Shown here: positions 5,449 to 46,949 of the stretch, piece after piece
Layout: each line of letters begins with the position of its first letter
How positions within the stretch are numbered: position 1 is the stretch's first letter
Origin: Myxococcales bacterium
Lineage (GTDB): Bacteria; Myxococcota; UBA727; VGSZ01
Assembly: GCA_023248635.1 (NCBI GenBank)
Contig: JAHFED010000010.1
Location: 13,275 to 77,274, forward strand
Length of the DNA: 64,000 nucleotides
Direction of reading: 5' to 3'
Notes under the pieces: model-generated
Told to the model about the DNA's origin: nothing
Databases searched by the model: none
The model's input: the letters and a program-made list of their open reading frames with translations, nothing else
Program-made: the position numbers and the translations under genes

Positions 5449-6879
5449 ATGCAGCGACCAACCAGGAAGACCGCGAAGGCCAGCGCGGAGCCTCGCCAGC
5501 GGGTCGCCCACAGGAGCCCATCGACGTCGATGAGCACCGCCAAGAAGAGGCCCGCAGCAGCCAGGGCAACACCGAAGGCTCAGCCTGCTGGGGGTGCAAA
5601 CAAGAGCGCCACAAAGAAGACGACGAAGACGACGAAGACGGCGAAGGCGACGAAAACCAAGGCGAAGAAGGCGACGAAGACGAAGGCGCCGAACCTCCGC
5701 GTGGCCCGCCTCCCCGTCGTCTGGCGTTTCAACACTGGCGTTCAAACCGTGGGCTTGTGGGTCGACGAGCTCGTGTGGGTGGCCAACGACGACGGCAACG
5801 TCTACGCCCTCGACCGCCACGGCGCCTTGGCCAAGCAGATGAAGCTGCCCCAGGGCTCCGCCAGCGTCATCGCCGACGAAGCTTGGAAATACGCGGGCTG
5901 CGAAGATGGCAAGGTCTACGACCTCACCGGTCGGGTCCCGCACGCGATGTACGACGTCGGCCGAGCGAACATCGGTTGGATCGAGGTCTACCGCGGCAAT
6001 CTCTGCGTGGCCGATCTGGCTGGAACCGTGGCGGTCTTCGACGTCGACGGCGACCAACGCTGGAAAAAGAAAGTCAAAGACGGCGGCGAAGGTTGGGTGC
6101 TGCGCGTCGACGGCACGGGCCTGTACCACGGCTGCGAGATCGGGCTGCGCAAGCTCTCGTGGGGGGGCGAGGTGCTGTGGCACAACCGCGGCGTCGACGA
6201 TGTGCGCTTCGCTGTCGACCACGGCGACGCCCTCGCGCTCACCGGTGGCTACGAGAGCGGGGGTGACACCACCCTCTACGTCGTCGAGAAGGCCAGCGGC
6301 AAGACCCGGCAATCGGTGTTGCTGACCAGCGACGGCCCCGGGTTTTGCCCCAACGGAGCCGAAGCGGTGGCCGTGGGCCGCGCCGCCGACGGAGCCACGC
6401 GGCTCTATGTCGCCTGCGGCAACTATCTCTTTGGCTACGACGAAGCGCTGGCGGTCTTGTGGGAGGCCAAGGTCGAAGCTGGACCCATCTGCAACATGCA
6501 GCTCGTCGACGAGACCCTCTTCTACGCCACCTCTGAAGGTGCGGTATGCGCCGTCGACGTCGGCGCGGTGGCCATCGCCCGGGCTTTGACGGGCAAGGTG
6601 AAAAAGGCGCGGGTGAGGCAAGCGCCCAAGGAGCAAGCAGAAGACGGCGGCCTCGAGATCGTCGGTGACGCCGGCGGCGGCGTCGTCGTCGAAGTGATCA
6701 AATTGGGGGGCAAGCTCAAGGTGCGTCCCCTCGGCGGCAAGTTCCGCTCGGACTGGTTTTGCCAGTTCCCCCGCGACCTGCGGGAAGAAGGGGCCCGCTT
6801 CGTCGTCGACGAATTGCGCGAAGCCGCTCAGGGTGGTTTCTACCGCACGCTAGGCGACATCCGTCGATTCCGGCCCTGA
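5449..6879 (+). CDS. PQQ-like beta-propeller repeat protein with a histone-H1-like Lys/Ala/Thr-rich N-terminal tail.
   Basis: About 90 N-terminal residues are KKAT/KTKA-type repeats (AKKATKTKAKKATKTKA). These are followed by repeated G-x-V/L-Y-A-x-D, WxxxG and LYVAxxxG beta-propeller blades. Confidence 0.7.
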   Translation: MQRPTRKTAKASAEPRQRVAHRSPSTSMSTAKKRPAAARATPKAQPAGGANKSATKKTTKTTKTAKATKTKAKKATKTKAPNLRVARLPVVWRFNTGVQTVGLWVDELVWVANDDGNVYALDRHGALAKQMKLPQGSASVIADEAWKYAGCEDGKVYDLTGRVPHAMYDVGRANIGWIEVYRGNLCVADLAGTVAVFDVDGDQRWKKKVKDGGEGWVLRVDGTGLYHGCEIGLRKLSWGGEVLWHNRGVDDVRFAVDHGDALALTGGYESGGDTTLYVVEKASGKTRQSVLLTSDGPGFCPNGAEAVAVGRAADGATRLYVACGNYLFGYDEALAVLWEAKVEAGPICNMQLVDETLFYATSEGAVCAVDVGAVAIARALTGKVKKARVRQAPKEQAEDGGLEIVGDAGGGVVVEVIKLGGKLKVRPLGGKFRSDWFCQFPRDLREEGARFVVDELREAAQGGFYRTLGDIRRFRP

Positions 6880-6890: not shown

Positions 6891-8822
6891 TCAGCTCCGA
6901 CGACGACGGCGCAGCAGCCCCGCCAAGAGCGCGAAGGACACCAGGGCGCTGCTCGTGTTGCCGCTGGCACAGGTGGGCCCGCCGGTGGTCTCGAACTCGT
7001 CCTGGAAGGCTTCGCCGTTGCAGACCACCGCCGTGGAGTCGACCTCGCCGTCCTCGAGGATGCCGTTGCCGCCAGTCCCACCGCCGGCGCCGTCGTCGAG
7101 CCCCGACTCCACCACTTGTCCACCTGCGAGACAATCGTCGCCGGCTTCGATGGGTGTCAGCCGCAGCAGTGACGTCAAGCCGCTGCCGCCGGCGGAGCCG
7201 CTGGCGCCGGTGGGTCCCGGTGGCCCCGTTTCGCCCGCGGGTCCGGTGGCGCCGTCCTCGCCGTCATCGCCCGGCGCGCCGTCGTCGCCAGCAGGTCCGG
7301 TGGCGCCGTCGTCTCCGTCGACACCTGGGGCGCCGTCGGCGCCATCGACTCCTGGGGCGCCGTCGTCGCCGTCGACACCCGGGGCGCCGTCGTCTCCGTC
7401 GGCGCCGTTGGAGCCGTTGCTGCCGTTGGTGCCGTTGGAGCCGTTGCTGCCGTTGGTGCCGTTGGTGCCGTTGCTGCCGTTGGTGCCGTCGCAAACGAAG
7501 ACCGTGTCGTCGACCTCGTCGTCGTCGAGCAGGCCGTCGAAGGCCGTGCCGTCGCCGTCGCCGTCGTCGGCGCCGGTGTCGATGGCCTGTCCGCCGGCGG
7601 CGCAATTCGCACCTGGGCCTTCGGTTCGCACGCGTGCGGCAACGGGGGCGCTGATGCCCCCCAGCTCAAAGGAGCCGATGTCGCACCGCTCATCGGCGCG
7701 GAAGCGGCCTCGTTGATCCAGGTCGAAGGCCACGCCAGCGATGTCGTTGCAGCTCCCCGCGTCCACCGCCGGGCTGGCCCCGGGGAGGCGCAAGGTCTGG
7801 GTCGCTCCGCCGTTTTGCGCCAGAGCGCCGAGCTGGGGATCGATCCCCAAGACGTCGCTCGGCAGACCCAGAAAGACCCCCGTTGCCTCGATGAGGTTGA
7901 AGCCCAGGGACACCAGGTCGCGGCCGCCGCCGCCGTCGTCGGGCGTGTCGTTGGCGGCGATGGTGTTCTTCAGGCGAACGTCGGCGGGCCCGCGGCTGAA
8001 GATGCTGCCGCCGCTGACGGCGACGTTGGCGGAGAAGGTGGAGCTGTCGACGTCGGCGGCGTCGCAATTGATGGCTCCGCCCTCGTCGCCGCCGGTGTTT
8101 GCCGAGAAGGTGCTGTTCACCACGTGCAGGGGGGCGACGGTCAAGATCGCGCCGCCGTCAGCAGCGGCGTCGTTGCCGTCGAAGGTGCTGTCGCTCACGA
8201 CGGCAGCTGGCGCCCCGAGCAGAAAGAGGGCCCCACCGTCGTTCGCCGTGTTGTCGCTGAAGGTCGAGCGCACGACGGTCAGCGCGACGTTGGAGCCGCC
8301 GATGGCGCCGCCGTTGTGCGCGTCGTTGTCCTCGAACACGCTGTCAGCGATGACGGCGGTGCCGGAAAGGTTGATGGCGCCGCCGGTGCCACTGCCAGCG
8401 TCGTTGTTGGTGTTGTTGCGAAAAGCGCAGTCCGACACCGTCAGCGATGTCGATGAAATCAGCGCAGCGTCGAGAGCCAGCGAATCCTTCATCTGCAGGG
8501 CCCGAAACGACGTCGCTGGCCCCTGTGCCGACCAGATCGCGTTGGCCCCCTGGCCATCGAGGACGGTCAGCTCCCGGCCGGCGCCCACGACGTCGACGCT
8601 GGTGGTGCTGAGCAGAACGCTGGCGAGCGGGAAGGTGCCGGCAGGCAGCACGATGGTGTCGGTGTCGGGGGCCGCATTGGCGGCGGCGACGGCCTCGCGC
8701 AGCGACAGCACCGCATCATCGGCGACCTCGTCGCTCAGCGTCGTGACCGTGAAGGTCGCGGCCTGGGCCGCCGTGGGGACGACGACGGCAATGCAGACGG
8801 CTCTCAGGACATTGGCGTTCAT
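6891..8822 (-). CDS. Secreted surface protein: signal peptide, CSLREA-type motif, parallel beta-helix repeats, a collagen-like G-X-Y run and a MYXO-CTERM sorting tail.
   Basis: Signal peptide MNANVLRAVCIAVVVPTAAQA. LSLREAV motif near the N-terminus. Many GGA[IL]x / SxFxxN beta-helix repeats. About 34 consecutive Gly-X-Y triplets (GTNGSNG...GAPGVDGDDGAPG...GPPGPTG). C-terminus TCASGNTSSALVSFALLAGLLRRRRRS (Cys, hydrophobic stretch, polybasic tract). Confidence 0.8.
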   Translation of the reverse strand: MNANVLRAVCIAVVVPTAAQAATFTVTTLSDEVADDAVLSLREAVAAANAAPDTDTIVLPAGTFPLASVLLSTTSVDVVGAGRELTVLDGQGANAIWSAQGPATSFRALQMKDSLALDAALISSTSLTVSDCAFRNNTNNDAGSGTGGAINLSGTAVIADSVFEDNDAHNGGAIGGSNVALTVVRSTFSDNTANDGGALFLLGAPAAVVSDSTFDGNDAAADGGAILTVAPLHVVNSTFSANTGGDEGGAINCDAADVDSSTFSANVAVSGGSIFSRGPADVRLKNTIAANDTPDDGGGGRDLVSLGFNLIEATGVFLGLPSDVLGIDPQLGALAQNGGATQTLRLPGASPAVDAGSCNDIAGVAFDLDQRGRFRADERCDIGSFELGGISAPVAARVRTEGPGANCAAGGQAIDTGADDGDGDGTAFDGLLDDDEVDDTVFVCDGTNGSNGTNGTNGSNGSNGTNGSNGSNGADGDDGAPGVDGDDGAPGVDGADGAPGVDGDDGATGPAGDDGAPGDDGEDGATGPAGETGPPGPTGASGSAGGSGLTSLLRLTPIEAGDDCLAGGQVVESGLDDGAGGGTGGNGILEDGEVDSTAVVCNGEAFQDEFETTGGPTCASGNTSSALVSFALLAGLLRRRRRS

Positions 8823-10632: not shown

Positions 10633-10700
10633 AATTCATCGCCGCCAGGCGATGAACCTGTAGACAATTCACCGACACGCGAAGCCTGGTCGGTGGACTC
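10633..10700. repeat. Copy (inverted orientation) of the ~65-bp double-hairpin intergenic repeat also found at 16620..16749 and 52636..52706.
   Basis: The reverse complement reads ...caccgaccaggcttcgcgtgtcggtgaattgtctacaggttcatcgcctggcggcgatgaattc. Apart from a few substitutions in the first stem it is the same as the units in the lepA-lepB spacer. It carries two internal inverted repeats (CACCGAC/GTCGGTG and TTCATCGCC/GGCGATGAA). Confidence 0.8.
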
Positions 10701-10822
10701 CGTGTGCGTCTATCATGGTTAACATAATGCACATTATCGAACATCTGGCGCCGTCTGAGGCGCATGGCGACGTTGTCAAAACCATGCTCCTGTTGTCCGC
10801 CGTTCGGCTCCCAGCGGCGGGC

Positions 10823-12127
10823 TCAGCCCGTGGCCCGTCGAACGATGAGAGCCAAAAAGAGGTCGGCGCGCATCGGGTGCAGTTGCAGCGGGATGTACAC
10901 GAGGTTGTGCACCAGGGCGCCGTGGTCCCCCAACCACCTGCCGAGTTCGTCGGCGGTGAAGGCCATCCGCGGCAACGGCTGCAAGCCCAACAATGGACCC
11001 ACCGCCCGACGCAGCACATCGAGATTCTCGAGGTCGACGACGGCGATGCCTTCGTCGAGGCCGATCATGTCGACGACGCGGCGGGTGGCCGCCAACAGGT
11101 CGACAGCACTGGCCACGGTCTCGAGGTGGCCAAAGTGGATGCTGTGCTCGACATGGCCGCCGAGCACGACGCGAATGGGCGGACGCGTGCGCGAGCCGTA
11201 CTCGGTGATGATGGCGGAGCCGCCGTCGGCCAACAGTCCCTCGAGCCTCTCGATCAGAGCGATGGGACCGGTGCCCACGAGCACAGCGTGGGGAGAGCCG
11301 ACCAAGGAAAGTCCATAGCGGCGCACACAGCGGGCCGCTTCGCCAACGTCGACGCCGACGTCGTCGCGATAACAGGGACGCACCGGCAGATCGGCTATGA
11401 CTTCGTTGGAAATGACGAGGTCGAAGGGTTTGTCGGGCTTGAAAGTGAGCAGGTCTTGAAGCACGAAGGAGCAACGTTCGCCGTGGGGTGCGCAGCGCTG
11501 CCGCTGGGATCGTTGCAGCGCCGGCGAGAGGTCGACGAGGGTGTAACGCACGCTTTGGTAGAGGTCGGGACGGGTGGCGTGCAGCCGCGCCAAGAAATCA
11601 TGGGCGAAGCGGCCGGTGCCACAGCCGAGCTCGACGACGGTCAAGGTCTGGCGGCTGCGGTCGACGACGGCATCGCAGAAGGCGGCGCCGAAGGTGCGTC
11701 CCTGCAGCACGGCCGAGGGAAAGGCCAAGAGGTGGGCCAAAGTGGTTTCGACGTCGTCGAATTGGGCGTCGGCGTCGTCGATGACCTCTTGGTGGTAGGC
11801 CTCGGTGTCCAAGCTCTCAGACATCGCCGCCTGGGCGGAGAAGAACTCGAGCGTGAAGCGCCGATCGGCGGCGAAGGCCCGCAGGGTTGCAAGCTCCTCG
11901 GTGAGGGAGTCGTCCCGCACCAGCCCGCGCACCGCCTGCCGCCACCGCGAGGCCACCGCGGCATCGACGTCGCCGACCCCCGTCGCCAGGGCCTTCAGGG
12001 TGGGCAGGTCGTGGGCGTCGACGTCGTGGGCCCGGGGATGCTGATCGAGGCTGTCTGCGGCCTCAAAGAGCAACCCCGTGCCGTCGCGGTCTTCGAGCAG
12101 GATCGCGGAGCGCTTCAAACGGGCCAT
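10823..12127 (-). CDS. Class I SAM-dependent methyltransferase (MidA/DUF185-like architecture).
   Basis: Rossmann SAM motif VVELGCGTGRFAHDFL and acidic motif II (FDLVISNEV). The start was chosen at MARLKRSAILLEDRDG (ATG 12127). The longer ORF-track N-terminus back to 12460 has a wrong-frame-like composition. Confidence 0.7.
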   Translation of the reverse strand: MARLKRSAILLEDRDGTGLLFEAADSLDQHPRAHDVDAHDLPTLKALATGVGDVDAAVASRWRQAVRGLVRDDSLTEELATLRAFAADRRFTLEFFSAQAAMSESLDTEAYHQEVIDDADAQFDDVETTLAHLLAFPSAVLQGRTFGAAFCDAVVDRSRQTLTVVELGCGTGRFAHDFLARLHATRPDLYQSVRYTLVDLSPALQRSQRQRCAPHGERCSFVLQDLLTFKPDKPFDLVISNEVIADLPVRPCYRDDVGVDVGEAARCVRRYGLSLVGSPHAVLVGTGPIALIERLEGLLADGGSAIITEYGSRTRPPIRVVLGGHVEHSIHFGHLETVASAVDLLAATRRVVDMIGLDEGIAVVDLENLDVLRRAVGPLLGLQPLPRMAFTADELGRWLGDHGALVHNLVYIPLQLHPMRADLFLALIVRRATG

Positions 12128-12254
12128 GGCCGAGCTTAGGTCGAGCCGGACGCGGAGGGGACGGGACCCATGAGCGGCCGCCGCAGAGCGTGGTAGTGAC
12201 CCGTCCTTCGAGACGCGCCAGCGTCTCGAACAGATGAATTCGCAGGAGCGCGCC

Positions 12255-13103: not shown

Positions 13104-13214
13104 ATCGTGTGTGTAATTCTCTGCCCTCAGGCCGGGCGGCCAATTGCGAGCACATCGGCGATCATCGGGCGATCGCCGGAGGCGTGGGCGGCGACGAAGG
13201 GCGACAACCCGGGG

Positions 13215-14576
13215 ATGTCGAGCCGTGCGATCCCCGTCGTCGTTCTCTCGTTGCTCGCTCTGGCTGCCTGCGGCTCCGGCACCGACGACGTCGAGGAATT
13301 CGCTGAGCTCACCGCGGGTCTTTCACGCAGTGAGCACGCGTTGGCAGCCCCAGGCAGCTGGACCCCCGCTGGCGACGTCGTCAGCGTCGGCGACGCTCAA
13401 GAAGTCCAATACGACGGCGCCCCCGCCTACGACGACGGCGCCAACTGCTCCGGCGATGCGACCCCGGGTGCGCGCACTTTGCGCGACGTGTTGGTCAACG
13501 CCTACCCCGACATCGACAGCGTCGGCATCTACAACTGCCGGGTCATCGCCGGCACGAACTCGATGTCCATCCACGGCGTCGGCCGCGCCCTCGACGTCAT
13601 GATTTCGCCCATCGACGGTGAAGCCGACAACGGCGCCGGCGACCCCATTGCTGCCTGGTTGATGACCAACGCCGAAACCCTGGGCCTGCAGGGCATCATC
13701 TTCGATCACACCATTTGGACGACGTCGAGAGCGCCTGGAGCGCGCGTGCGTCCCTACACCGGCGAGAACCCCCACATCGATCACCTGCACGTCGAGATCA
13801 ACGAGCAGGCCGCCGCCCAAGACCTGCCCTGGTACTCAAACCCCGTGGGTCCAGGCCCCGCCCCCGACTGTGAGCCCCTGCCCGCCGGCGGCGGCGTCGT
13901 CGACGACGGACCCTGCCAGCAGCACTTTGGTCCCAGCCAGTTCTGGCGCAGCGAGGCCGCCGGGCACGGTGGCCAGCTCTATTGGACCAACGCCTTCGAA
14001 GGCGACGCCCCCAGCAACTGGGCCCGCACCACCATCAAGGTCGAAGGCGGCGGCAGCTACGACGTCGAAGTCTTTCTCGATCCCGCTTTCGCCCAGTTCG
14101 CCACCACCCGCTACCGCGTGGTCAGTGGCGACGCCGAGCAGGTCGTCGTCGTCGACCAGGCCGCCCGTTCTCTGGAGCGCGAGGGCTGGGCCCTGCTCGG
14201 CACTTTCGATGTGCCAGAAGAGGGCCTGAGCGTCATCGTCGAGGACGACACTTCGACGGCGCCGCCCGCCGAAGCCAAGCGCATCGTCTTCGACGCCGTC
14301 CGCATCTCTGGGCCCGGGGAGGTTCCCCCCGATGAGCCCCCGCCTGACGAGCCCCCGCCTGACGAACCCCCGCCCGATGAGCCCCCGCCCGACGACGTGC
14401 CCCCCATCGACGACGACGGCCCGGTGCTCGACGACGACGACGAAGGCACGGTCGAAGAGTCGCGCATCGTCGTCGTCCACCGCCAACCCTCTTGCGCCAC
14501 CGCGCCGACGCCCGCGCCGCTCTTGCTGCTGCTGGCCGCGCTCTTTTTGGTGCTCACCGGACGCCAGCGGCGCTGA
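13215..14576 (+). CDS. Lipoprotein with a LAS-fold (peptidase M15/hedgehog-type) zinc-binding domain, an (EPPPD)x4 repeat and a MYXO-CTERM tail.
   Basis: Lipobox LLALAAC|GSG. H-x6-D motif (SIHGVGRALD) plus a downstream HIDHLHVE (HxH), as in zinc D-Ala-D-Ala carboxypeptidases. DNA-level 15-bp tandem repeats encode DEPPPDEPPPDEPPPDEPPPD. C-terminal CATAPTPAPLLLLLAALFLVLTGRQRR. Confidence 0.7.
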   Translation: MSSRAIPVVVLSLLALAACGSGTDDVEEFAELTAGLSRSEHALAAPGSWTPAGDVVSVGDAQEVQYDGAPAYDDGANCSGDATPGARTLRDVLVNAYPDIDSVGIYNCRVIAGTNSMSIHGVGRALDVMISPIDGEADNGAGDPIAAWLMTNAETLGLQGIIFDHTIWTTSRAPGARVRPYTGENPHIDHLHVEINEQAAAQDLPWYSNPVGPGPAPDCEPLPAGGGVVDDGPCQQHFGPSQFWRSEAAGHGGQLYWTNAFEGDAPSNWARTTIKVEGGGSYDVEVFLDPAFAQFATTRYRVVSGDAEQVVVVDQAARSLEREGWALLGTFDVPEEGLSVIVEDDTSTAPPAEAKRIVFDAVRISGPGEVPPDEPPPDEPPPDEPPPDEPPPDDVPPIDDDGPVLDDDDEGTVEESRIVVVHRQPSCATAPTPAPLLLLLAALFLVLTGRQRR

Positions 14577-14628
14577 GCCCCGACGACGTCGTTGACGGGA
14601 TGCCAATCAGTCCGCATGACCACGGACA

Positions 14629-16425
14629 ATGGCTTCCGAGCTCATCCGAAATTTCTCCATCATCGCCCACATCGACCACGGTAAGTCGACGCTCGCCGAC
14701 CGCATCCTCGAGGTCACGGGCTCCATCACCGCCCGCGAGATGCAGTCGCAATTCCTGGACAAGATGGACCTTGAGCGCGAGCGCGGCATCACCATCAAGG
14801 CCCAAGCGGTGCGCCTGTTTTACACGGCGAAGGATGGCAAGACCTACAACCTCAACCTCATCGACACCCCTGGCCACGTCGACTTCAACTACGAGGTGAG
14901 CCGCGCGCTCGGAGCATGCGAAGGCGCCCTCCTCGTCGTCGATGCGTCTCAAGGCGTTGAAGCCCAGACCCTGGCCAACGTCTACTTGGCTCTCGACGCC
15001 AACCTCGAGATCGTGCCGGTGCTCAACAAGATCGACCTGCCCTCGGCGGACCCCGAACGGGTGCGTCAGGAGATCGAGGACATCATCGGGCTCGACGCCA
15101 GCCAAGCCGTCTGCGCTTCGGGCAAAGCGGGCATCGGCATCGTCGAAATCCTCGAAGCCATCGTGCAGAAGGTGCCCCCACCCAAGGGCGACGTCGACGG
15201 CCCCTTGGCTTGTTTGATTTTTGACTCCTGGTTCGACTCCTACCGCGGCGTTGTCGTGCTCGTGCGCGTCTTCGAAGGCACGGTGAACCCCGGCATGAAG
15301 GTGCGCCTCATGCACAACGGCAAGGAGTTCGAGGTGCAGGAGCTCGGCGCCTTCACGCCCCACTCGATCAAGCTGCCGCAGCTCGTGGCCGGCGAAACCG
15401 GCTTCATCATCGCCAACATCAAAGACGTGCACGACACCAAGGTCGGCGACACGTTGACGTCGGTGGTGAACCCGCGCCCGGCGCCCCTGCCCGGGTTCAA
15501 GGAGATCCAACCCGTCGTCTACGCCGGCGTCTTTCCCATCGAGGCCGCCGACTACGAAAACCTCAAGGAGAGCCTGGCCAAGCTCAAGCTCAACGACTCG
15601 GCGCTCAAGTTCGAGCCGGAGACGTCGAAGGCGTTGGGCTTTGGTTTCCGGGTCGGTTTCCTCGGTCTGTTGCACATGGAGATCGTGCAGGAGCGCCTCG
15701 AGCGCGAGTTCAACCTCGAGCTCATCACCACCGCTCCGACCGTGGTCTACCAGGCCTACATGACCGACGGCAGCGTCGTCGAAGTCGACAATCCCTCGCG
15801 CCTGCCCGACCCCGCGCGCACCGACCACGTCGAAGAACCCATCATCATCGCCAGCATCCACACGCCCTCGGAGCACGTGGGCGCCATCATCAAGCTCTGT
15901 GAAGATCGACGCGGCACCCAGAAGGACCTCGCGTTCATCACCCAGACCCGCGTGCTCATCAAATACGAGCTGCCCCTGGCCGAGGTCGTCTTCGACTTCT
16001 TCGACAAGCTCAAGACCGTGAGCCGCGGCTACGCCTCCTTCGACTACGACCTCGCCGGCATGCGCGCAGACAAGCTCGTGAAGGTCGACGTCCTCGTCAA
16101 CGGCGAAAACGTCGACGCCCTTTCGATCATCGCCCACCGCGACCGGGCGCAGGCTCGTGGACGCGTGCTCTGCGAGAAGATGAAAGAGCTGATCCCGCAG
16201 CAGCAGTACCAGGTGGCGATCCAGGCCGCGATTGGCGGAAAGATCATCGCGCGCGAGACGTTGAGTGCTTTGCGCAAGGATGTGACGGCCAAGTGCTACG
16301 GCGGGGACATCTCGCGCAAGCGCAAGCTGCTCGAGCGGCAGAAGGAAGGGAAGAAGCGCATGCGACAGGTCGGCAGCGTCGACATCCCGCAGGAAGCCTT
16401 CCTCGCCGTGCTGAAAGTCGATTGA
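14629..16425 (+). CDS. lepA: Translation elongation factor 4 (LepA/EF4).
   Basis: N-terminus [20 protein letters not shown], GTPase motifs G1-G4 and the LepA-specific C-terminal domain; 598 aa. Confidence 0.97.
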
Positions 16426-16458
16426 GCGATGAAGCGGAACACACGCACGGTGCTGATG

Positions 16459-16614
16459 TTCAAGACGCGCCAGCGTCTTGAACATCCAAGCTTCAAGACG
16501 CGCCAGCGTCTTGAACATCCAAGCTTCAAGACGCGCCAGCGTCTTGAACATCCAAGCTTCAAGACGCGCCAGCGTCTTGAACATCCAAGCTTCAAGACGC
16601 TGGCGCGTCTTCAG
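16459..16614. repeat. Tandem array (4 perfect copies and 1 variant) of a 33-bp unit. Each unit holds a perfect 10-bp-stem hairpin, TTCAAGACGC-gcca-GCGTCTTGAA.
   Basis: ttcaagacgcgccagcgtcttgaacatccaagc repeated at 16459, 16492, 16525 and 16558, with a variant at 16591 (loop tggc). The 9-bp spacers are identical, so this is not CRISPR. Confidence 0.9.
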
Positions 16615-16619
16615 TGCCG

Positions 16620-16749
16620 ATTCACCGACAGCGCTTCGCGTGTCGGTGAACTGTCAACAGGTTCATCGCCTGGCGGCGATGAATTCACCAACAGCGCTTC
16701 GCGTGTCGGTGAATTGTCTACAGGTTCATCGCCTGGCGGCGATGAATTG
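16620..16749. repeat. Two tandem copies of the ~65-bp double-hairpin repeat (family shared with 10633..10700 and 52636..52706).
   Basis: ATTCACCGACAgcgcttcgcgTGTCGGTGAATtgtctacaggTTCATCGCCtgGCGGCGATGAAtt occurs twice, with a/t polymorphisms. Conserved pseudo-peptides (ALRVSVNCLQVHRLAAMN) appear in spurious ORFs at all three loci. Confidence 0.85.
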
Positions 16750-16777
16750 GCCGCCCGGCCTGAGGGCAGAGAATTCC

Positions 16778-16800
16778 TCAAGACGCTGGCGCGTCTTGAA
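16778..16800. repeat. Additional solitary hairpin of the TCAAGACGC...GCGTCTTGA type, 12 bp upstream of the lepB start.
   Basis: tcaagacgctggcgcgtcttgaa is the same stem as the 33-bp array units with loop tggc. Confidence 0.8.
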
Positions 16801-16811
16801 AGCGGTGGATC

Positions 16812-18134
16812 ATGAGCTGGGGAAATCGCTTGCGCCGCTTGCTGACCCCTGGTCACGCCGTCGGCTTCGTCGTCGTCGTCACGGCCCTCTATTTTGCCTG
16901 GGGGCGCGTGTTCCAGGAGGGAGGCACCGGCAGCAACGTCGTCCTTGGTCTGCTGCTCGCCGTCGCCGTCTTGTGGGTGGGCACCAACACCCTTGCTCCG
17001 GTCGTCGACGAAGCCCTCGCGTCGGGCGATAAGCGCGCGCTCCTCAAGAAGCAGCGGCTGGCCTTCGAAGGGGCTGTGCACCTCGAGAAAGCGACCAAGC
17101 GCGAGCGCAAGAACAAGAAGACGCCGCTGACCTCCGACGTCTTCGCCGAGCTCAACGCCGTGATCGCGGCCCTCTTTCAGGCCTCCGTCGACGGCAAGGA
17201 CATCGACGCCGTCGCCGAACGGGCCACGGCCATCACCAACCGGGCTTTTCCGCCGGTCAAAGAGGGTGTCTTTGCCCAGGCCCGCTCGTTGGGTGCCGCC
17301 TTCGCCGTCGCCATCGCCCTGCGCACCTTCGCCGTCGCACCCTTCCAGATTCCCTCGGGTTCGATGATCCCGACCCTGCTCATTGGCGACCACCTCTTTG
17401 TGTGGCGCGCGACCTATGGGCTGCAGATCCCGTCGAAGAATGGCCTCGGCATCTTTTCGTTCCTTGGCGCGGTGCTGCCCCAAAAGCCGATCTATTTCGC
17501 GCGGTGGTGCATTCCCGAACCCGGCGATGTCGTCGTCTTCGAGGCTCCCCCCTGGGTCTCGGCGAATGCCGGCGAGGATTGGATCAAGCGTGTGGTCGCG
17601 GGGCCCGGCCAACAGGTGCGCTTCGAAAACACGGTGTTGATCGTCGACGGCCGGCGCTACGAGCAGGTCTCCGCCGATGGAAAAAATGGGGTCGACGACG
17701 ACGGCGACCCCTTGGGCGAGCTCACCACCTACGACGACTTCCGCGGTGACACTGGCCCCTGGGTCAAGTCCCACGCTGGCCACAAGAAAGAGACGCTGCT
17801 GCGTCGCGACGGCACGCCGGTGGTGCACTCCATCTTCAACGACATGCCACCCCGCACCTCGCAGTGGCCCATCCCCGGCGCGGTGCCCACCTTGACCGGA
17901 CTGCGCTGCACCGACGAAGCCTGCACCGTCGCCGACGGCTTCGTCTTCGTCATGGGCGACAACCGCGACAACTCCTCCGACGGGCGCACGTGGGGCGCTG
18001 TGCCCATCGACAACATCAAGGGCAAAGCCATCTTCATCTGGGTGTCCGTCGACGGCAGCGAGAACTCGCTGAAGGTCGGACGCTTCACGCTCCCGCGCTT
18101 TCGCTGGGACCGCCTCGGCGACATCATTCGCTGA
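16812..18134 (+). CDS. lepB: Signal peptidase I (S26 family) with an extended N-terminal TM region and a large insertion.
   Basis: Box B IPSGSMIPTL (catalytic Ser) and box E GDNRDNSSDGR. Conserved synteny with lepA. Confidence 0.9.
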   Translation: MSWGNRLRRLLTPGHAVGFVVVVTALYFAWGRVFQEGGTGSNVVLGLLLAVAVLWVGTNTLAPVVDEALASGDKRALLKKQRLAFEGAVHLEKATKRERKNKKTPLTSDVFAELNAVIAALFQASVDGKDIDAVAERATAITNRAFPPVKEGVFAQARSLGAAFAVAIALRTFAVAPFQIPSGSMIPTLLIGDHLFVWRATYGLQIPSKNGLGIFSFLGAVLPQKPIYFARWCIPEPGDVVVFEAPPWVSANAGEDWIKRVVAGPGQQVRFENTVLIVDGRRYEQVSADGKNGVDDDGDPLGELTTYDDFRGDTGPWVKSHAGHKKETLLRRDGTPVVHSIFNDMPPRTSQWPIPGAVPTLTGLRCTDEACTVADGFVFVMGDNRDNSSDGRTWGAVPIDNIKGKAIFIWVSVDGSENSLKVGRFTLPRFRWDRLGDIIR

Positions 18135-18138
18135 GCGA

Positions 18139-18678
18139 TCAGTCCTTCTGGTTGACGGCGACCGGCGCCGGCGACGTCGCGCGCTTGCGCAGCACTGCGA
18201 GATTCTCCTCGAGCTTGCGGCCCGGCTCTTCGGATTCGGCCACCGCCAGCAGGGCCCGGTGTTGGTCGACGGTGCTCTTGAGCTGCGACAGGAATTGGGC
18301 CCGCTGGCGCTTGAGCTCGCCGATGTCGCGCAGCAGCTCGGTCAGGCGCTCCTGGGCATGATCGAGAATGCGATCGGCCTCGAGCTCGGCACGGCCCAAG
18401 ATGACGTCGGCCTCCTTGTCGGCGGCACGCTTGATCTCTTCGGTCACGCGCTGGGCCGTGATCATGGTCTCTTTCAGAGCTTCTTCGCGGGCGCGGTAAT
18501 CCTCGAGGAGACGCTTGACCACGCGCTGGTCGTCTTTGAGCTCGACGTTTTCGCGAATGACCTTTTCGAACTCCCCGGCCACGAGGTTCAAGAAGGCATC
18601 GACCTCGGTCTTGTCGAGGCCGCCGCCGAAGCGGCTGCGAAAACGTTGCTGCTGGATGTCGAGGGGCGTGAGGGCCAT
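18139..18678 (-). CDS. DivIVA-domain protein.
   Basis: N-terminus MALTPLDIQQQRFRSRFGGGLDKTEVDAFL is the DivIVA signature, followed by coiled-coil-prone sequence. Start taken at the internal ATG (18678), not the ORF-track 18714. Confidence 0.8.
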   Translation of the reverse strand: MALTPLDIQQQRFRSRFGGGLDKTEVDAFLNLVAGEFEKVIRENVELKDDQRVVKRLLEDYRAREEALKETMITAQRVTEEIKRAADKEADVILGRAELEADRILDHAQERLTELLRDIGELKRQRAQFLSQLKSTVDQHRALLAVAESEEPGRKLEENLAVLRKRATSPAPVAVNQKD

Positions 18679-26639: not shown

Positions 26640-29600
26640 TCAGCGCGGGTTGGCGCAACAGCGGTAACCAAGGGTCGACGTCGTCGTCTTCGCCGACACC
26701 AGGTGGCGCGCCGAGCAACGCGACGCGAAATCAGGGTGATCGGCGGAGCCGCCCTTGGCGATTCTCTGGCCGCCGTGGGAGTCGGCGACCCATTCCTCGG
26801 CGTTGCCCGACATCATGTAGAGCTTGAAGCCAGACTTGCACTTCTTGAAATCGACGGGAGCAGCCAGGGGACGGGGTTTGCCGTCGCTGTCTTCGGTGTT
26901 GCAAGTGTCTGCGTCGTAGGTGTTGCCATAGGGGAAGCGCGACGACGACGGCCCCTTGCAGGCTCGCTCCCATTCTTGCTCGGTGCACAAGCGCCGACCC
27001 GCGCGCTCGCAGGCGTTCTTGGCGGCGGTCCACGAGACACCGGTCGTGGGCAGGGTGCTCTTGCCGTTGGGCGCCTCGTAGTGCTCGATGCAGAAGGCTT
27101 TGACCTCGACCGACGTCGCCTCGGCTTCTCCAAAATTGCGCATGGGATCGGACTGCGCGGAGCCGAAGGTGAAGGCGCCGGCTTCGATCTTGACGGTGCC
27201 GCCTGGGCATTCTCCCGACGACAAAGCGAGCTCGGGGGCCTTGGGATCCGGTGTCGGGCCTTTGGGATCCACTTTGGGATCGACTTTGGGATCGACCCTG
27301 GGATCGACCTTGGGATCGACTCTGGGATCGGGCGCCTTGACCAAGGCAGCCTCGCGTTCGCGCCGTTGCATTTCTTCGAGGGCGCGGGCTGCGGCGTCGC
27401 GCGTCTCTTTGGCGTCGTCGACGCGCGGCTGCACGGCCACCGTCCCCGCGTCGACCACAACGGCGACGGCGGGAACCGGGGCGGGCGGCTGCGGCACCAC
27501 CTCCCCCGGTTGCAGGGTCACGCCGGCAACGTCTTCGGCGTCTTCGCCGGATTGCTTCCACAGGTGGCGAAGAGCGAGCAGCAGCAGCAGCACAGCGAAG
27601 CCGACGCCGGCCGCGATCAGCACGGGGTTGGTGCCCTGCTTGGGCCGACGCGGTGGCGTGACCGGACGCAGGGGGACAAAAGGCTGCACCGCCATGACGT
27701 CGTCGTCGTCGCCGCCGCGTGCCCTGGGGCGTCGGGCGCTGGTCAAGGTCTCCTGCACGTCGTCGTCGTCGTTGCTGCGCCTGGGCAGTGCCGGCGGCAG
27801 CTCCTCGGCTTGTCCAGAGCCCGTGCCAGCGGTGCGGGTGAGCGCTTCGCGCAGGGCGACGTCGTCGACGTGGTCGGCCCGCGGATGGAGCTTGAGCGCC
27901 GTCAAGGCATCGTGAATGGCCAGGCCATCGTCGGAGCTCAGGGGCGGTGGCGGCATCGGCAGCGACGCGGGTGGTGGCTCTTCGGAGGTCAAACCGAGCA
28001 CCTCGGCGGCTCGGGGCCCCGCCCCCGCCAGCTCGGCGGTCTCTTCGAGGGAGTCCTCGCTCGACATCGCGGGGGCGTGGGGGCGCGCGACCGCTCGCGG
28101 TGGCGTCGGGAGCCCGGGGTTGTCGCTGGGGGCCGCCGCCGGAGCGCGCGGAGGGTTCGGGTTGGGGCTCAGGCTCCCCGCCGCGATCTGTCGGTTCTCG
28201 ACGGTGTCGTCGTCCCCAGGCAAGGGGAAATGCGAGCGCTCGAGGGGATCGCCTTCGTCGTCGGGCAGCGGCGGCGGGATCAGGTTGTCGTCGACCTCCT
28301 TGGAGTAGAGGGCTTCGAGCAGGGCGTCGCCGCCGGGGGGCCGGGCACCGGAATAGACCAGCCCGGGGCGCTCGCCCTGCATCGGCCGGCCGCCGGGGCT
28401 GGTGTCGACGTCGTCTTCGCCAGAGGCACGGGTGGTTGGATCGTCGGCGGTGTCGTCGGGGTTGAGGCCGCTGACCGACATCAAGCGCCGCGCCGCCAAC
28501 TCCATGTCGGTCTCGGCAGGCGCGGGCGGGCTCGGACGCTTGGTCTGCATCACCGCGCTCTCGAGCAGCATGACCTGGCTCTGCCCAATCTCGAGCAGCG
28601 AGGGATCCTCTTCCTCCGACGACGCCGACAACGGCGGTGCCAGGGCTTGCGCGTTGGTCTGCTGGGGCGGTGGCCCGGGATGGGGAAATGCAGCTGCGAC
28701 GACGACGACCCCTGCTTCTCTGCCCTCGAGTCGCGCCCCGGCCACCGGCTCCACCAGCAGGGCGCCTGGTGGCAGGGGAGAGGACGCCTTCGCGGCCGGC
28801 GTGGGCTTGCCGAGGCTTGGTGGCTCCTTGGTCGCGGCGGGGGGCGGCAGCGGCTGTCCGCCAAGGGCAGCGAGGGCTCCTTCGACCTCCTTGGCCAGGT
28901 CGCCGGCTTTGGTGAAGCGCCCATCGGGGTGCTCGGCGACGGCGCGTCGAATCAAGCCGTCGAGGCGGGTGGGGAGCTGCTCGAGGGCCGCGGTGAAGGC
29001 GCGGGAGAAGTGTCCTTCGAAAACGATGCCCGTCAGCATCTCGGCGAAGATCACCCCCAGCGAGTAGACGTCGACGCGGCCGTCGATGGTCTGTGCTTCC
29101 ACGCGCAACTCGGGGGCGATGTAGGGAAAGGCCTTGCTCCTGCTCTTGGCGATGCCCAGGAAGGGCTTGAGCGGCAGGCCTTTGACGAGGCTGAAGTCCG
29201 TGACCTTGAGCAGGTCAGGCAGGACGACGACGTTTTCTGGCTTGAGGTCGCCGTGCCAGGTCTGTTTGTGGGCGTAGTCGAGAGCAGCACCCAGCTGCTG
29301 GAAGATCGGCGCGAGCTCTTCGGGCGAGAAAGCCTGGCCCTTGTCGTGCCGGAGCCGAATGATCTTCCGCAGCGTGAGCCCCTCGAGGAGCTTCATGGTG
29401 AAGAAGCGGCGGTTGGGCTGCAGGTGCTGCCCTTCGTCGTAGATGCGGACGATGTTGGGATGCTGCAGCTTGCGCGCGGATTTAATGGCCTTGGCGAACT
29501 GCTTTTGCTCTTCGTCGGTCTGCAGCAGGTTGGGCGAGATGCCCTTGAGGGCAATGTCGACGTCGATCTCGGTGTCGCGGGCGCGGTAGACGGCGCCGAC

Positions 29601-29804
29601 CCCGCCCTGGCCGATGAGGTCGAGGACGCGATAGCGGCCCGCGATCAGCTCTCCCGGCGAAAAGATCAGCGCCTGCTGCTGCCCCGTCGTCGGCCGCTTC
29701 TGCGGTCCGATGTTCTTGCCGGCCTTGTCGACGAGCTCTTGCCCGCAGACCGTGCACTTCTGTGCTTCATCGGAGTTGTAGGAGCCGCAGCGGAAGCAAA
29801 GCAT
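26640..29804 (-). CDS. Receptor-like Ser/Thr (pseudo)kinase: Zn-ribbon, then a Hanks kinase with altered catalytic motifs, a Pro-rich linker, one TM helix, a (VDPK)n repeat and an FGE-sulfatase (SUMF1-like) domain.
   Basis: MLCFRCGSYNSDEAQKCTVCG ribbon. Kinase motifs GQGGVGAVYRA and IALKGI, but HGDLKPENV (HRD changed to HGD) and VTDFSLV (DFG changed to DFS). TM helix NPVLIAAGVGFAVLLLLLALRHLW. DPRVDPKVDPRVDPKVDPKVDPKG encoded by 12-bp DNA tandem repeats. C-terminal FGE motifs (GNAEEWV, LGYRCCANPR). Confidence 0.8.
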   Translation of the reverse strand: MLCFRCGSYNSDEAQKCTVCGQELVDKAGKNIGPQKRPTTGQQQALIFSPGELIAGRYRVLDLIGQGGVGAVYRARDTEIDVDIALKGISPNLLQTDEEQKQFAKAIKSARKLQHPNIVRIYDEGQHLQPNRRFFTMKLLEGLTLRKIIRLRHDKGQAFSPEELAPIFQQLGAALDYAHKQTWHGDLKPENVVVLPDLLKVTDFSLVKGLPLKPFLGIAKSRSKAFPYIAPELRVEAQTIDGRVDVYSLGVIFAEMLTGIVFEGHFSRAFTAALEQLPTRLDGLIRRAVAEHPDGRFTKAGDLAKEVEGALAALGGQPLPPPAATKEPPSLGKPTPAAKASSPLPPGALLVEPVAGARLEGREAGVVVVAAAFPHPGPPPQQTNAQALAPPLSASSEEEDPSLLEIGQSQVMLLESAVMQTKRPSPPAPAETDMELAARRLMSVSGLNPDDTADDPTTRASGEDDVDTSPGGRPMQGERPGLVYSGARPPGGDALLEALYSKEVDDNLIPPPLPDDEGDPLERSHFPLPGDDDTVENRQIAAGSLSPNPNPPRAPAAAPSDNPGLPTPPRAVARPHAPAMSSEDSLEETAELAGAGPRAAEVLGLTSEEPPPASLPMPPPPLSSDDGLAIHDALTALKLHPRADHVDDVALREALTRTAGTGSGQAEELPPALPRRSNDDDDVQETLTSARRPRARGGDDDDVMAVQPFVPLRPVTPPRRPKQGTNPVLIAAGVGFAVLLLLLALRHLWKQSGEDAEDVAGVTLQPGEVVPQPPAPVPAVAVVVDAGTVAVQPRVDDAKETRDAAARALEEMQRREREAALVKAPDPRVDPKVDPRVDPKVDPKVDPKGPTPDPKAPELALSSGECPGGTVKIEAGAFTFGSAQSDPMRNFGEAEATSVEVKAFCIEHYEAPNGKSTLPTTGVSWTAAKNACERAGRRLCTEQEWERACKGPSSSRFPYGNTYDADTCNTEDSDGKPRPLAAPVDFKKCKSGFKLYMMSGNAEEWVADSHGGQRIAKGGSADHPDFASRCSARHLVSAKTTTSTLGYRCCANPR
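27262..27330. repeat. Six tandem 12-bp repeats (ttgggatcgacy) inside the kinase-FGE gene, encoding the (VDPK/R)n periplasmic linker.
   Basis: tttgggatccactttgggatcgactttgggatcgaccctgggatcgaccttgggatcgactctgggatcg. Confidence 0.8.
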
Positions 29805-30075
29805 TGACGTCGACGACCCGCGTTGGAGGTGGGGCTGCCATAGCTCAACGATCTGCGATGACAAACGGCCTGTGGCGCACGCCGCGCGCTTTCTTTCGCA
29901 TCAGGATGCGCTTCGCGCAGCTCCTCCGGCCCGGCCTCGGCCCAGATGGGCAGCCCCGGATGGGTTGACAGAAGGTGAGGTCTGTAAACTCGCACGCAGC
30001 GCGCGGACGTCGTGAGCCTTCACGTTCTGCTGTCCAGACGCTGGCGCGTCGCGAAACGTCAGCTGCGGGCCACCG

Positions 30076-44242: not shown

Positions 44243-44290
44243 GGCCACGCTTGGCTTGCGCCGACGTCGTGGAATGGCTCAAAACACGGG

Positions 44291-46941: not shown

Positions 46942-46949
46942 GACAGACC

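Follow-up and report, generated by a model that had tools for sequence, protein, structure and literature searches.

Small palindromic elements of a new sequence family probably fill the lepA-lepB spacer of a myxobacterial genome

The spacer between lepA and lepB in the 64-kb stretch of myxobacterial DNA analyzed here (referred to below as the window) is pieced together from three kinds of repeat module, A, BC, and D. We think it likely that small palindromic elements specific to this lineage, akin to REP/BIME, MITE, and RPE elements, have colonized the genome and cluster in this spacer; their hairpins all follow the pattern TTCA...TGAA and make them a new sequence family. Among the explanations offered in the initial annotation of this DNA, “REP-like” and “MITE insertion hotspot” fit our data best, given the dispersed copies of the modules, an insertion in an Hpt-domain gene, and the unrelated fills, 0 to 386 nt long, that close relatives carry at this junction.

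The flanking genes were identified using Pfam. lepA (EF4; 14629 to 16425, plus strand) encodes 598 amino acids with GTP_EFTU, EFG_C, and LepA_C domains, has a GC3 of 0.88, and ends at a TGA stop (16423 to 16425). lepB (signal peptidase I; 16812 to 18134, plus strand) encodes 440 amino acids with a Peptidase_S26 domain. Its homologs are 437 to 448 amino acids long and cover 98 to 100% of LepB. Because they span LepB end to end, we take the lepB start to be right and the spacer to be 16426 to 16811, so the 386-bp gap noted at the outset is borne out by the gene identities and the full-length LepB homologs. The spacer has a GC content of 0.58, compared to 0.68 for the window, and a flat GC3, a composition foreign to coding DNA. 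Only its edges resemble anything in relatives. The left edge or leader (16426 to 16458, plus strand) contains an ATG at 16429, and its first six nucleotides, GCGATG, also occur in the closest relative (locus L083), where the blastn alignment runs to 16431. The alignment picks up again at 16803 in the right edge (16801 to 16811, plus strand), which holds a Shine-Dalgarno-like GGTGGA at 16804 to 16809 that is conserved in the spacer-bearing relatives L071 and L083.

Inside these edges, the first module is an array of four perfect head-to-tail 33-bp units (16459 to 16590, plus strand), recovered by both TRF and repeat finding (family D1). TRF reported a period of 33 with 4.3 copies and 100% matches over 16459 to 16600. 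Each unit consists of hairpin A (TTCAAGACGC-GCCA-GCGTCTTGAA) and a 9-nt linker, CATCCAAGC. In the perfect units, hairpin A is 24 nt long with a 10-bp stem and a folding energy of −15.1 kcal/mol. The initial annotation had described five such tandem units, each with a perfect 10-bp stem. Four of them are perfect, but the stem of the first is lengthened to 14 bp (16455 to 16486; −23.3 kcal/mol), and the fifth hairpin (16591 to 16614, minus strand) has a flipped loop, TGGC rather than GCCA, and a stem cut to 7 bp (−9.3 kcal/mol). Units 4 and 5 form an inverted pair (16558 to 16614) in which 21-nt arms that are 100% complementary (inverted repeat I11) are separated by a 9-nt spacer; the pair has a folding energy of −40.1 kcal/mol for RNA and −27.7 kcal/mol for DNA.

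The second module comprises two tandem BC units (16620 to 16745, plus strand; family D3). They had been described as two double-hairpin units of 65 bp; the copy number stands, but TRF places the period at 63 bp, with 95% matches. A unit contains hairpin B (30 nt, 10-bp stem, 10-nt loop, −18.9 kcal/mol) and hairpin C (22 nt, 9-bp stem, TGGC loop, −14.7 kcal/mol). Hairpins A, B, and C all open with TTCA and close with TGAA, and BC units meet at the 8-nt palindrome TGAA|TTCA. Module D (16745 to 16775, plus strand) is 31 nt long and matches the reverse complement of 13115 to 13145 at 31 of 31 positions (blastn-short; inverted repeat I9). It had been overlooked in the initial annotation. The spacer closes with a sixth A hairpin (16777 to 16800, minus strand), which has a flipped loop and a perfect 9-bp stem (−14.2 kcal/mol). 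A last hairpin 12 bp before lepB had been noted; it is present, but its loop is flipped and it ends 11 nt upstream of the ATG.

RNA folding confirmed the proposed stability of these hairpins. The whole spacer folds at −221.8 kcal/mol, compared to −138.6 ± 5.8 kcal/mol for shuffled sequences (z = −14.3), and the BC unit folds at −35.3 kcal/mol (z = −5.5). None of 200 shuffles folded as well as hairpin A, B, or C, while module D has no significant structure (z = +0.16). The window holds 19 perfect hairpins of at least 9 bp against 1 to 7 in block shuffles, and shuffles of the window gave no match to the three hairpin patterns.

The exact LepA and LepB proteins are found on two MEGAHIT k=141 contigs (ENA assembly ERZ27276474), one of which stops at window position 16599 while the other starts at 16460. 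The contigs overlap by 140 nt (k − 1), wholly within a 142-nt perfectly periodic tract. Since both contigs break inside this perfect array, the number of units is a lower bound. The break pattern is of the kind that a de Bruijn graph cycle gives rise to, the window represents the shortest path through the assembly graph, and the true A array is probably longer than displayed or varies within the population. It is extremely unlikely that the array or the entire spacer is a mis-join of the two contigs, even though they end and begin within the array, overlap by exactly k − 1, and yield the window as their minimal join. Each contig separately has more than four perfect units joined to a unique flank, lepA on one and A5-BC-BC-D-A6-lepB on the other. 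Furthermore, lepA is followed by lepB in every relative, and a single NCBI contig (129,699 bp) holds both proteins. We therefore rejected mis-assembly of the whole spacer and limit our doubt to the number of units; the existence of the array and the join stand.

All three modules have further copies in the 64-kb window, every one of them intergenic, which brings the total to six loci where shuffles predict none. A BC copy on the minus strand (10633 to 10700; 96 to 100% identity over 53 to 54 nt) lies between two minus-strand genes and is co-oriented with them; the syntenic site in relative L071 is empty. A copy of D on the minus strand (13115 to 13145) lies between adh_short and a VldE-like lipoprotein gene, and L071 is without approximately 32 nt at the corresponding site. 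Two copies are degenerate: an A-like copy (30033 to 30056, minus strand; nhmmer E = 0.0011) within the intergenic region 29865 to 30075, and a BC copy (52640 to 52703, plus strand) that begins at the TGA stop of the upstream gene (ATGAATTCAC) and whose hairpins have decayed (fold z = −0.99). When five BC copies were compared, none of 26 pairs had a compensatory change, and substitutions disrupted pairs. The A variant at 12207 to 12230 (plus strand; TTCGAGACGC-GCCA-GCGTCTCGAA, −17.5 kcal/mol), whose end lies 24 nt before adh_short begins, is a counterpoint to our reading of these sequences as elements; one base pair is altered on both sides, from A-T to G-C, a compensatory double change.

Wider searches with short probes returned only unrelated sequences. 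A scan of GTDB species-representative genomes, a set in which the source genome is absent, with TTCRAGACGCNNNNGCGTCTYGAA gave 14 matches. Eight were a different, longer repeat of Bradyrhizobium macuxiense, and the rest were single chance or coding matches. Similarly, the BC core GCTTCGCGTGTCGGTGAA matched JGI metagenome contigs 51 times, all of them chance 18-mers with dissimilar flanks.

Copies were also found inside protein-coding genes. In assembly ERZ27276474, which also supplied the LepA and LepB contigs, contig k141_3344185 has an Hpt-domain gene that carries a BC copy in frame and co-oriented with the host gene; the DNA of this copy is 96% identical over 77 nt. The encoded protein (P0127) contains RSASRVGEFTDTASRVGELSTGSSPGGDEF, and seven Hpt homologs are gapped there, missing exactly these 25 to 30 amino acids. 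An exhaustive phmmer search added four single-member proteins with peptides from BC, BC-D, or A arrays; three have the provenance “NCBI, ENA” like the window’s own proteins, and one is from NCBI only. The element peptide forms the C-terminal tail of a histidine kinase (P0140), lies in a PilZ...AMIN linker (P0142), and occurs in a MerR-family protein (P0148), while P0153 is a second array of flipped A units with an 11-codon (33-nt) period. In P0142 and P0148, the apparent BC insert falls between or after the Pfam domains. Altogether, translated ORFs or contig L084 supply at least five further loci outside the window. We discarded most of the low-scoring phmmer matches (P0137 to P0139, P0141, P0143, P0144, and others) as unrelated low-complexity tandem-repeat proteins, e.g., from Branchiostoma.

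These copies bear on whether the palindromes could be protein binding sites. Each 24-bp near-perfect palindrome TTCAAGACGC-N4-GCGTCTTGAA could be the site of a dimeric protein, repeated at a 33-bp spacing (approximately three helical turns). Palindromic half-sites fit this idea, as do two A copies placed just before gene starts (ending 24 nt upstream of adh_short and 11 nt upstream of lepB) and the 12207 variant, which stays symmetric through its double change. However, a second A array is translated as an ORF elsewhere (P0153), the copy at 30033 is degenerate, and BC lies within coding sequences. Hairpins B and C share the end motif and not the half-site sequence, and there is no adjacent regulator gene. 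We consider an operator array to be very unlikely.

We compared the junction with that of relatives whose lepA DNA is 80 to 90% identical and whose synteny is the same. Their junctions measure −1 (0), 1, approximately 28, 88, 111, and 142 nt. The initial annotation held that lepA and lepB are normally tight, and in this clade relatives do show a TGATG overlap or a 1-nt gap. Where there is a fill, its interior is unrelated to the window spacer, and modules A, BC, and D are absent from approximately 205 kb of the relatives’ loci. The 142-nt fill of L071 is bounded by 19-nt inverted termini; neither this spacer nor that of L072 recurs as a repeat within its own 20-kb context. We also considered module D as a remnant of an ancestral spacer shared with L083, but the local alignment score of 18 to 21 falls within that of shuffles (mean, 16; maximum, 26). 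Orthologs sharing the spacer without the hairpins had been put forward as a sign that the array is neutral. As worded, this was not what we found, in that no relative has the spacer and the junctions are either tight or filled with unrelated DNA. Judged from these sequences, the spacer fill is lineage specific, and the relatives’ junctions point to dispensable, recently acquired DNA and not to a conserved regulatory device. Normally overlapping and coupled, the lepA-lepB pair tolerates very different fills in closely related genomes, with sizes from 0 up to at least 386 nt, which makes the junction a natural test bed for the importance of translational coupling.

The structure of the spacer could still be taken for an RNA device under selection that sets the ratio of EF4 to signal peptidase by attenuating or terminating transcription, by offering RNase a processing site, or by stabilizing the mRNA. 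In favor of this are the high stability of the fold (−221.8 kcal/mol; z = −14) and the orientation of BC, which runs in the direction of the flanking or host gene in the window and the Hpt gene alike; there is also precedent in E. coli, where REPs act as mRNA stabilizers. The roles of REPs are summarized in PMC3733652. The attenuator proposed in the initial annotation, or a terminator, is not supported by the sequence that follows the hairpins, which is CATCC, CTGTC, TTCAC, or AGCGG with no T-run. A promoter and terminator scan found neither in the spacer; four terminator-like sites in 14400 to 18400 all lie outside it, and shuffles average 3.3. Likewise, searching Rfam by E value and gathering thresholds gave only far subthreshold microRNA-precursor noise in the spacer. 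The only real Rfam match in the window is a tRNA-Pro. Moreover, the fill is missing from every relative, the same modules occur in unrelated intergenic regions and within coding genes, and BC has no covariation. Such a device is therefore improbable. We agree with the initial annotation that the array is not CRISPR; the 9-nt linkers are identical where unique spacers would be expected, and the window ORFs have no cas domains.

The spacer can also be read as a frame. A stop-free stretch of 128 codons (16429 to 16815, plus strand) begins 3 nt past the lepA stop in the lepA frame and ends at a TGA that overlaps the lepB ATG (ATGA). With an ATG-to-TGA frame and classic coupling geometry at both ends, it might be taken for a genuine small protein gene with internal repeats. 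We give this practically no credence and rejected it. The GC3 of the frame is flat at 0.57, compared to 0.86 to 0.88 in real genes, and stretches of its DNA are found both ways round within it and again at noncoding sites. Its homologs are limited to proteins with the same inserted element, its sole Pfam match is subthreshold and spurious, and it is absent from all relatives. In the protein databases, no called protein is identical to it. The bridging frame is probably not a real protein gene. The initial annotation suggested that the array would uncouple EF4 from signal peptidase expression; the frame could even preserve the translational coupling of lepA and lepB.

We hypothesized that the insert might be compatible with translation in the manner of MIRUs or RPEs, so that the stop-free frame keeps the elements at the junction. 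Ribosomes would restart at the ATG 3 nt past lepA, melt the hairpins, and terminate on ATGA, preserving coupling from lepA to lepB. The frame is exactly in lepA phase with zero internal stops and a −4 overlap, each tandem period is a multiple of 3 (33 nt, or 11 codons, and 63 nt, or 21 codons), and the BC reading frame is certainly tolerated in protein (the Hpt gene, P0142, and P0148). The unrelated spacers of L071 (142 nt) and the L074 group (111 nt) are likewise bridged by an ORF from a TGATG overlap, and PMC12548453 describes MIRUs as insertions at start codons whose internal ORF has a −4 coupling. However, shuffles that kept the modules intact also yielded bridging ORFs, at rates of 9.7% for the window (0.097), 38% for L071, and 49% for L074; this test was not significant, and we rejected the bridging ORF as a sign of selection. 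Besides, stop codons are rare at the GC content of the spacer, which leaves two forward frames out of three open over most of its length. Furthermore, the spacer of the closest relative, L083, has no bridging ORF, the GC3 and the database result given above also count against such an insert, and finding the same frame in other proteins follows from searching with its translation. On balance, we regard this explanation of the spacer as rather doubtful.

A broader version, which we also regard as rather doubtful, is that the TTCA...TGAA cassettes (A, BC, and D) are undescribed “translation-compatible” mobile palindromes of uncultured Myxococcota whose lengths and frame are selected. The multiple-of-3 periods and the open frame across the insert hint at selection for translatability, which pure neutrality does not predict. 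If such a family were real, unit lengths of 33, 63, and approximately 95 nt together with an open frame would let copies sit in genes, and a meaningless bridging ORF would pass ribosomes on from lepA to lepB, in the way suggested for MIRUs. The lepA-lepB array would then be a VNTR-like coupling tract of variable copy number rather than junk.

Returning to the reading we prefer, a cluster of dispersed palindromic elements, we asked how the family compares with known classes. Hairpins A, B, and C are palindromic units of 20 to 40 nt with stable stem-loops, as are REPs (PMC3733652). Like REPs and BIMEs, the copies we found lie mostly between co-directional genes, often just after stop codons, with some intragenic, and tandem reiteration of REPs with flanking DNA as well as REPs inside genes are documented in other bacteria (PMC3733652). 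The mosaic of different modules at one locus resembles a BIME in a general way only. In contrast to the GTAG/CGTC superfamilies of REPs (Di Nocera et al. 2013, PMC3733652), the elements carry no unpaired GTAG/CGTC tag and end in TTCA/TGAA; CGTC is found only inside the A stem, beside the loop. Among the five adjacent A units, four run head to tail, unlike alternating REPs, and the orientation of A (+ + + + − ... −) does not strictly alternate as in E. coli BIMEs, while the linkers are identical in the array. Another difference from REPs is that the 64 kb plus 8.7 kb of genome searched held no RAYT gene. The elements also come from a different phylum (a MAG lineage of uncultured Myxococcota or “Deltaproteobacteria”), with the family undetected in the nearest relatives. 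REPINs are REP doublets that form hairpins and are mobilized by RAYTs (PMC3116915, PMC3337134); the single inverted A doublet (16558 to 16614, −40.1 kcal/mol) is similar, but most units are direct repeats or singletons.

As in MIRUs, tandem units (33 bp in at least 4.3 copies and 63 bp in 2 copies) sit between genes of what is presumably a co-transcribed operon, and copy number is probably variable. A co-oriented ORF runs through the units with a −4 (ATGA) overlap with the downstream start, as PMC12548453, citing Supply et al. 1997, describes for MIRUs, although the ORF here is indistinguishable from chance (P of approximately 0.1). The elements differ from MIRUs in being strong palindromes, in the shorter A units (33 nt), and in occurring also singly and within genes; no sequence relationship to MIRUs is known, and homology is unlikely given the palindromic units and the different phylum. 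RPEs are Rickettsia-specific palindromic elements of approximately 100 to 150 bp (PMC10969869). They share with our elements in-frame insertion in unrelated protein genes, adding a peptide segment, plus noncoding copies. BC does so in the Hpt gene and apparently in the PilZ/AMIN and MerR-family proteins, but the unit is 63 to 95 nt and also occurs in tandem arrays. Finally, the elements are small and nonautonomous like MITEs and palindromes derived from IS200/IS605, and BC has imperfect 9-nt inverted termini (AATTCAYCG...CGATGAATT) with a hairpin at each end. Unlike MITEs, A is a single 24-nt hairpin, no parent IS is known, and no target-site duplication is definable; because the BC junctions fall in the palindrome TGAATTCA, any such duplication is inseparable from the element ends. 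Taken together, traits that are mostly known from separate classes meet in this family: it forms clustered hairpins like REPs, tandem arrays in the gap of a coupled gene pair like MIRUs, and in-frame insertions in proteins like RPEs. The kind of element is familiar, but the family would be new and restricted to this lineage.

As for the origin of the spacer, the sequences show that at least three modules (A, BC, and D) landed in an ancestrally tight, translationally coupled lepA-lepB junction and that head-to-tail amplification of A, and less so of BC, came next. Since any arm can pair with the arm on either side, slipped-strand mispairing is the presumed mechanism of amplification. The elements would be mainly selfish or neutral DNA, with hairpins inherited from master copies and decaying after insertion and not kept by selection at each locus. 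Speculatively, they could spread through a single-strand transposase that recognizes hairpins (HUH/Y1, RAYT-like) and acts in trans; Pfam found no transposase among the approximately 37 ORFs of the window. The effect of the array on lepA-lepB expression we can only infer. Since U-tracts are missing, the hairpins should not terminate transcription, and lepA and lepB would still be co-transcribed. At most, the hairpins might serve as barriers to 3′-5′ exonucleases or as processing sites, like E. coli REPs. With the ancestral stop/start overlap lost, lepB would be translated from its own Shine-Dalgarno sequence, GGTGGA, with a possible contribution from ribosomes that cross the stop-free frame and terminate on ATGA.

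Arrays of this type have practical consequences for genome data. They break short-read assemblies, and unit counts in deposited MAGs are untrustworthy where the array length is close to the assembly k-mer. They also mislead gene callers, giving extended ORFs, C-terminal tails, and repeat “proteins”; the 489-amino-acid call for the VldE-like gene, P0140, and P0153 are examples.

We placed lepA at 14629-16425 by its Pfam GTP_EFTU, EFG_C and LepA_C domains and lepB, with a 440-amino-acid product, at 16812-18134 by Peptidase_S26. LepB homologues of 437 to 448 amino acids gave 98 to 100% coverage of this product, so the start at 16812 is correct and the spacer (16426-16811) is 386 bp long. The initial annotation had described it as filled with stem-loop repeats, and in substance this was right. 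Tandem Repeats Finder detected two tandem arrays: at 16459-16600 a 33-bp unit is perfectly repeated 4.3 times, and at 16620-16748 a 63-bp unit occurs 2.0 times with 95% identity. By repeat search and hairpin scan, the first comprises four identical units of a 24-nt hairpin, module A (TTCAAGACGC-GCCA-GCGTCTTGAA), with the linker CATCCAAGC. A fifth A keeps this spacing with its loop flipped (TGGC, the opposite orientation) and its stem shortened to 7 bp; the perfect units are therefore four, not five as first counted. Then come two BC units, in each of which hairpin B, with a 10-bp stem and a 10-nt loop, is combined with hairpin C, whose stem has 9 bp; the period is 63 bp rather than the 65 bp first given. 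These are followed by module D (31 nt) and a sixth, flipped A, with 11 nt between the hairpin end and the lepB ATG. Module D and the orientation flips had been overlooked. All module hairpins have the form TTCA...TGAA, and cassettes meet at the palindrome TGAA-TTCA.

Folded as RNA, the whole spacer reached -221.8 kcal/mol compared to -138.6 ± 5.8 for shuffles (z = -14.3). Individual hairpins ranged from -9.3 to -23.3 kcal/mol, module D showed no structure relative to shuffles (z = +0.16), and the hairpins also form as single-stranded DNA. The suggested transcriptional attenuator, or a terminator, was not supported: no spacer hairpin is followed by a T-run, and a scan of the spacer found no terminator-like or sigma-70-like site. 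No known RNA family in Rfam matched the spacer. CRISPR had been excluded from the start, and rightly, as the linkers share one 9-nt sequence and the window's ORFs include no cas genes. We rejected a maintained structure because none of 26 pairs was compensatory across five BC copies and substitutions break pairs. A real protein gene was rejected as well, since GC varies little across codon positions (0.60/0.55/0.57), versus a GC3 of 0.86 to 0.88 in the neighbors, and identical DNA occurs in both orientations. No called protein identical to the spacer ORF was found in the databases searched.

The modules also occur elsewhere in the window. A BC copy on the minus strand (10633-10700) is identical to the two spacer units at 53/53 and 52/54 positions, and a degenerate BC copy lies on the plus strand (52640-52703). 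An A copy at 12207-12230 (TTCGAGACGC-GCCA-GCGTCTCGAA) has one pair altered on both sides, another at 30033-30056 is degenerate, and an inverted D copy at 13115-13145 is identical at 31/31 positions. On a gene map drawn from GC3, all of these copies fall between genes. The D copy lies upstream of a lipoprotein-type start at 13216, within an over-extended gene call: a 489-amino-acid VldE/Golvesin-like lipoprotein called in the metagenome from GTG 13107 reads through it (13107-13215). Comparison with the relative L071 (GCA_030685175.1) and the signal-peptide/lipobox sequence point to ATG 13216 as the real start. No transposase was found among the roughly 37 ORFs of the window. Beside the first BC copy, the window (10716-10745) and L071 (~6175-6205) share a conserved AT-rich motif that is partly palindromic, GTTAACATAATGCACATTATCGAACATCT, within a diverged intergenic region; it may be a promoter or operator. 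At the degenerate BC copy, the ATGAATTCA border includes the TGA stop of a plus-strand gene (~51200-52639) whose product contains a retroviral-type aspartyl protease domain (gag-asp_proteas/Asp_protease_2). In Bradyrhizobium macuxiense BR 10303, seven contigs (L006, L008, L012-L014, L016 and L017) contain a longer conserved repeat, and the hairpin at its center has the module A stem; the loop and flanks differ, and we regard this repeat as an unrelated family with a convergent stem.

The order VldE-like gene, lepA, lepB, DivIVA is kept in all relatives, but the lepA-lepB junction is not. It is a TGATG overlap (-1) in L003 (LepB 87% identical), 1 nt in L005 and GCA_041443065 (LepB 72 to 74%), about 28 nt in L080 (lepA DNA 89%), 88 nt in the closest relative, L083 (lepA DNA 90%), 111 nt in the L004/L072-L079/L081-L082 group (lepA DNA about 80%), and 142 nt in L071 (LepA protein 96.5%). 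Only the edges, 16426-16431 and 16803-16811 (the latter with an SD-like GGTGGA), are common to the window and its relatives; the interiors are unrelated to each other and to the window. No copy of A, BC or D was found in about 205 kb of the relatives' loci, and at the syntenic positions in L071 both the 10.6-kb BC copy and the 13.1-kb D copy are missing. Thus, the alignment of related spacers that had been suggested revealed no conserved fill, and the fill in the window is recent and lineage specific. As judged from sequence comparison, short insertions have repeatedly accumulated at this junction, which is hypervariable among close relatives. The L071 fill (11798-11939), unrelated to that of the window, has 19-nt inverted termini (GAAAACCGCGCTGAACGGG/CCCGTTGATCGCGGTTTTC) and looks like a MITE-like element or long hairpin; a 48-codon ORF bridges it from a TGATG overlap to an ATGA overlap.

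Translating the spacer-spanning frame and searching it against proteins gave one match, the Hpt-domain protein P0127. Its gene is on L084 (k141_3344185), an 8.7-kb contig of the metagenome assembly ERZ27276474, which also yields LepA and LepB. Over 77 nt, L084 4622-4698 matches window 16680-16756 at 96% identity, with a partial B half before it; the whole (4604-4698) sits in frame within the Hpt (histidine phosphotransfer) gene (4326-4772), between the last two helices. In an alignment with seven homologues, P0127 alone had an insert of 25 to 30 amino acids at this site, and the Pfam Hpt match stops there. An exhaustive phmmer search added four proteins with module-encoded peptides: P0140, a PAS-HisKA-HATPase kinase whose C-terminal tail consists of B, B, C, C, B and C peptides; P0142, with a BC-D peptide (FTDSASRVGQLSTGSSPGGDELAARPEGREF) between PilZ and AMIN domains; P0148, which belongs to the MerR family and contains B, B and C peptides; and P0153 (90 amino acids), with five 11-codon repeats (MMFKTLARLEV) of flipped A units. 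The remaining matches were discarded as unrelated low-complexity proteins. In these four, gene callers read through repeat clusters. P0140, P0142 and P0148 have a single-member "NCBI, ENA" provenance, like the window's proteins, and P0153 is from NCBI only, which is consistent with, but not proof of, an origin in the window's MAG. Taken together, these data show that dispersed palindromic elements are clustered as a mosaic in the spacer and that at least one of them inserts at new locations. L084 has a distinct hairpin, GGGAGGTCTG-loop-CAGACCTCCC with the loops flipped, at both of its ends (49-71 and 8601-8627); it does not occur in the window and suggests another repeat family that breaks assembly.

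In kind, the spacer is a cluster like those of REPs and BIMEs, and some of its traits recall RPEs and MIRUs (REP roles are summarized in PMC3733652). Its modules lack the GTAG/CGTC tag of classical REP superfamilies, and its units do not follow the strictly alternating orientation of BIMEs. We consider it a clean, well-supported example rather than a new type of system. Alternative 10-bp stems with 9-nt loops allow an arm to pair with the arm on either side, which suggests that head-to-tail amplification occurred by slipped-strand mispairing; the array in P0153 is a second one of 33-nt period. The fixed TTCA/TGAA border on the hairpins suggests, speculatively, recognition by a single-strand HUH/Y1 enzyme (RAYT or IS200/IS605 type) that could move them. 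The insert would be transcribed as part of the lepA-lepB mRNA without terminating it. E. coli REPs impede 3'-5' decay, and by analogy the insert may do so.

ENA assembly ERZ27276474 encodes proteins identical to LepA and LepB on two contigs built by MEGAHIT at k=141, with the lepA-side contig (L001) ending at window 16599 and the lepB-side contig (L002) starting at 16460. Their 140-nt overlap (k-1) falls fully within a 142-nt perfectly periodic tract, where only two 141-mers fit, the last k-mer of L001 and the first of L002. An array of exactly 142 nt gives no graph branch; one of 142 + 33n nt gives a 33-node cycle with exactly the observed entry and exit nodes. Because the contig break matches this cycle, the true 33-bp array is probably longer than in the window, or polymorphic, with the window showing the minimal path and underestimating the unit count, an instructive assembly caveat. 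The lepA-spacer-lepB join is not in doubt, since L001 and L002 each carry >4 units joined to unique flank, both proteins are encoded on one 129,699-bp contig from NCBI, and lepA precedes lepB in all relatives.

A 128-codon frame in the lepA phase opens 3 nt past the lepA stop and closes within the ATGA that contains the lepB start codon. The tandem periods, 33 and 63, are each divisible by three. PMC12548453 describes such an architecture for MIRUs, where a bridging ORF is coupled through ATGA to the downstream start. An ORF also spans the fills of L071 and L074, though not that of L083, and shuffles that kept the modules still gave a bridging ORF in 9.7% (window), 38% (L071) and 49% (L074) of trials. 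Combining the window's figure with the one-in-nine chance that both periods would be divisible by three gives a joint probability of about 1 to 2%, a post hoc figure. MIRU-like translational coupling, the main rival or addition to the insertion-derived mosaic, is a testable hypothesis that we consider unlikely.

Two further features lie elsewhere in the window. The Peptidase_M3, phosphoribosyltransferase and LysM/M23 block (window 44255-47569; L071 2589-6072) adjoins a methyltransferase gene in L071 and is inverted and about 32 kb from it in the window, which indicates a rearrangement between close relatives. At 27251-27330, about six copies of a 12-bp tandem repeat lie in the coding sequence of a minus-strand gene (26640-29864; Pkinase...FGE-sulfatase) and encode (S/W)IP(K/R/E/G)-type tetrapeptides in the Ser/Thr kinase linker.
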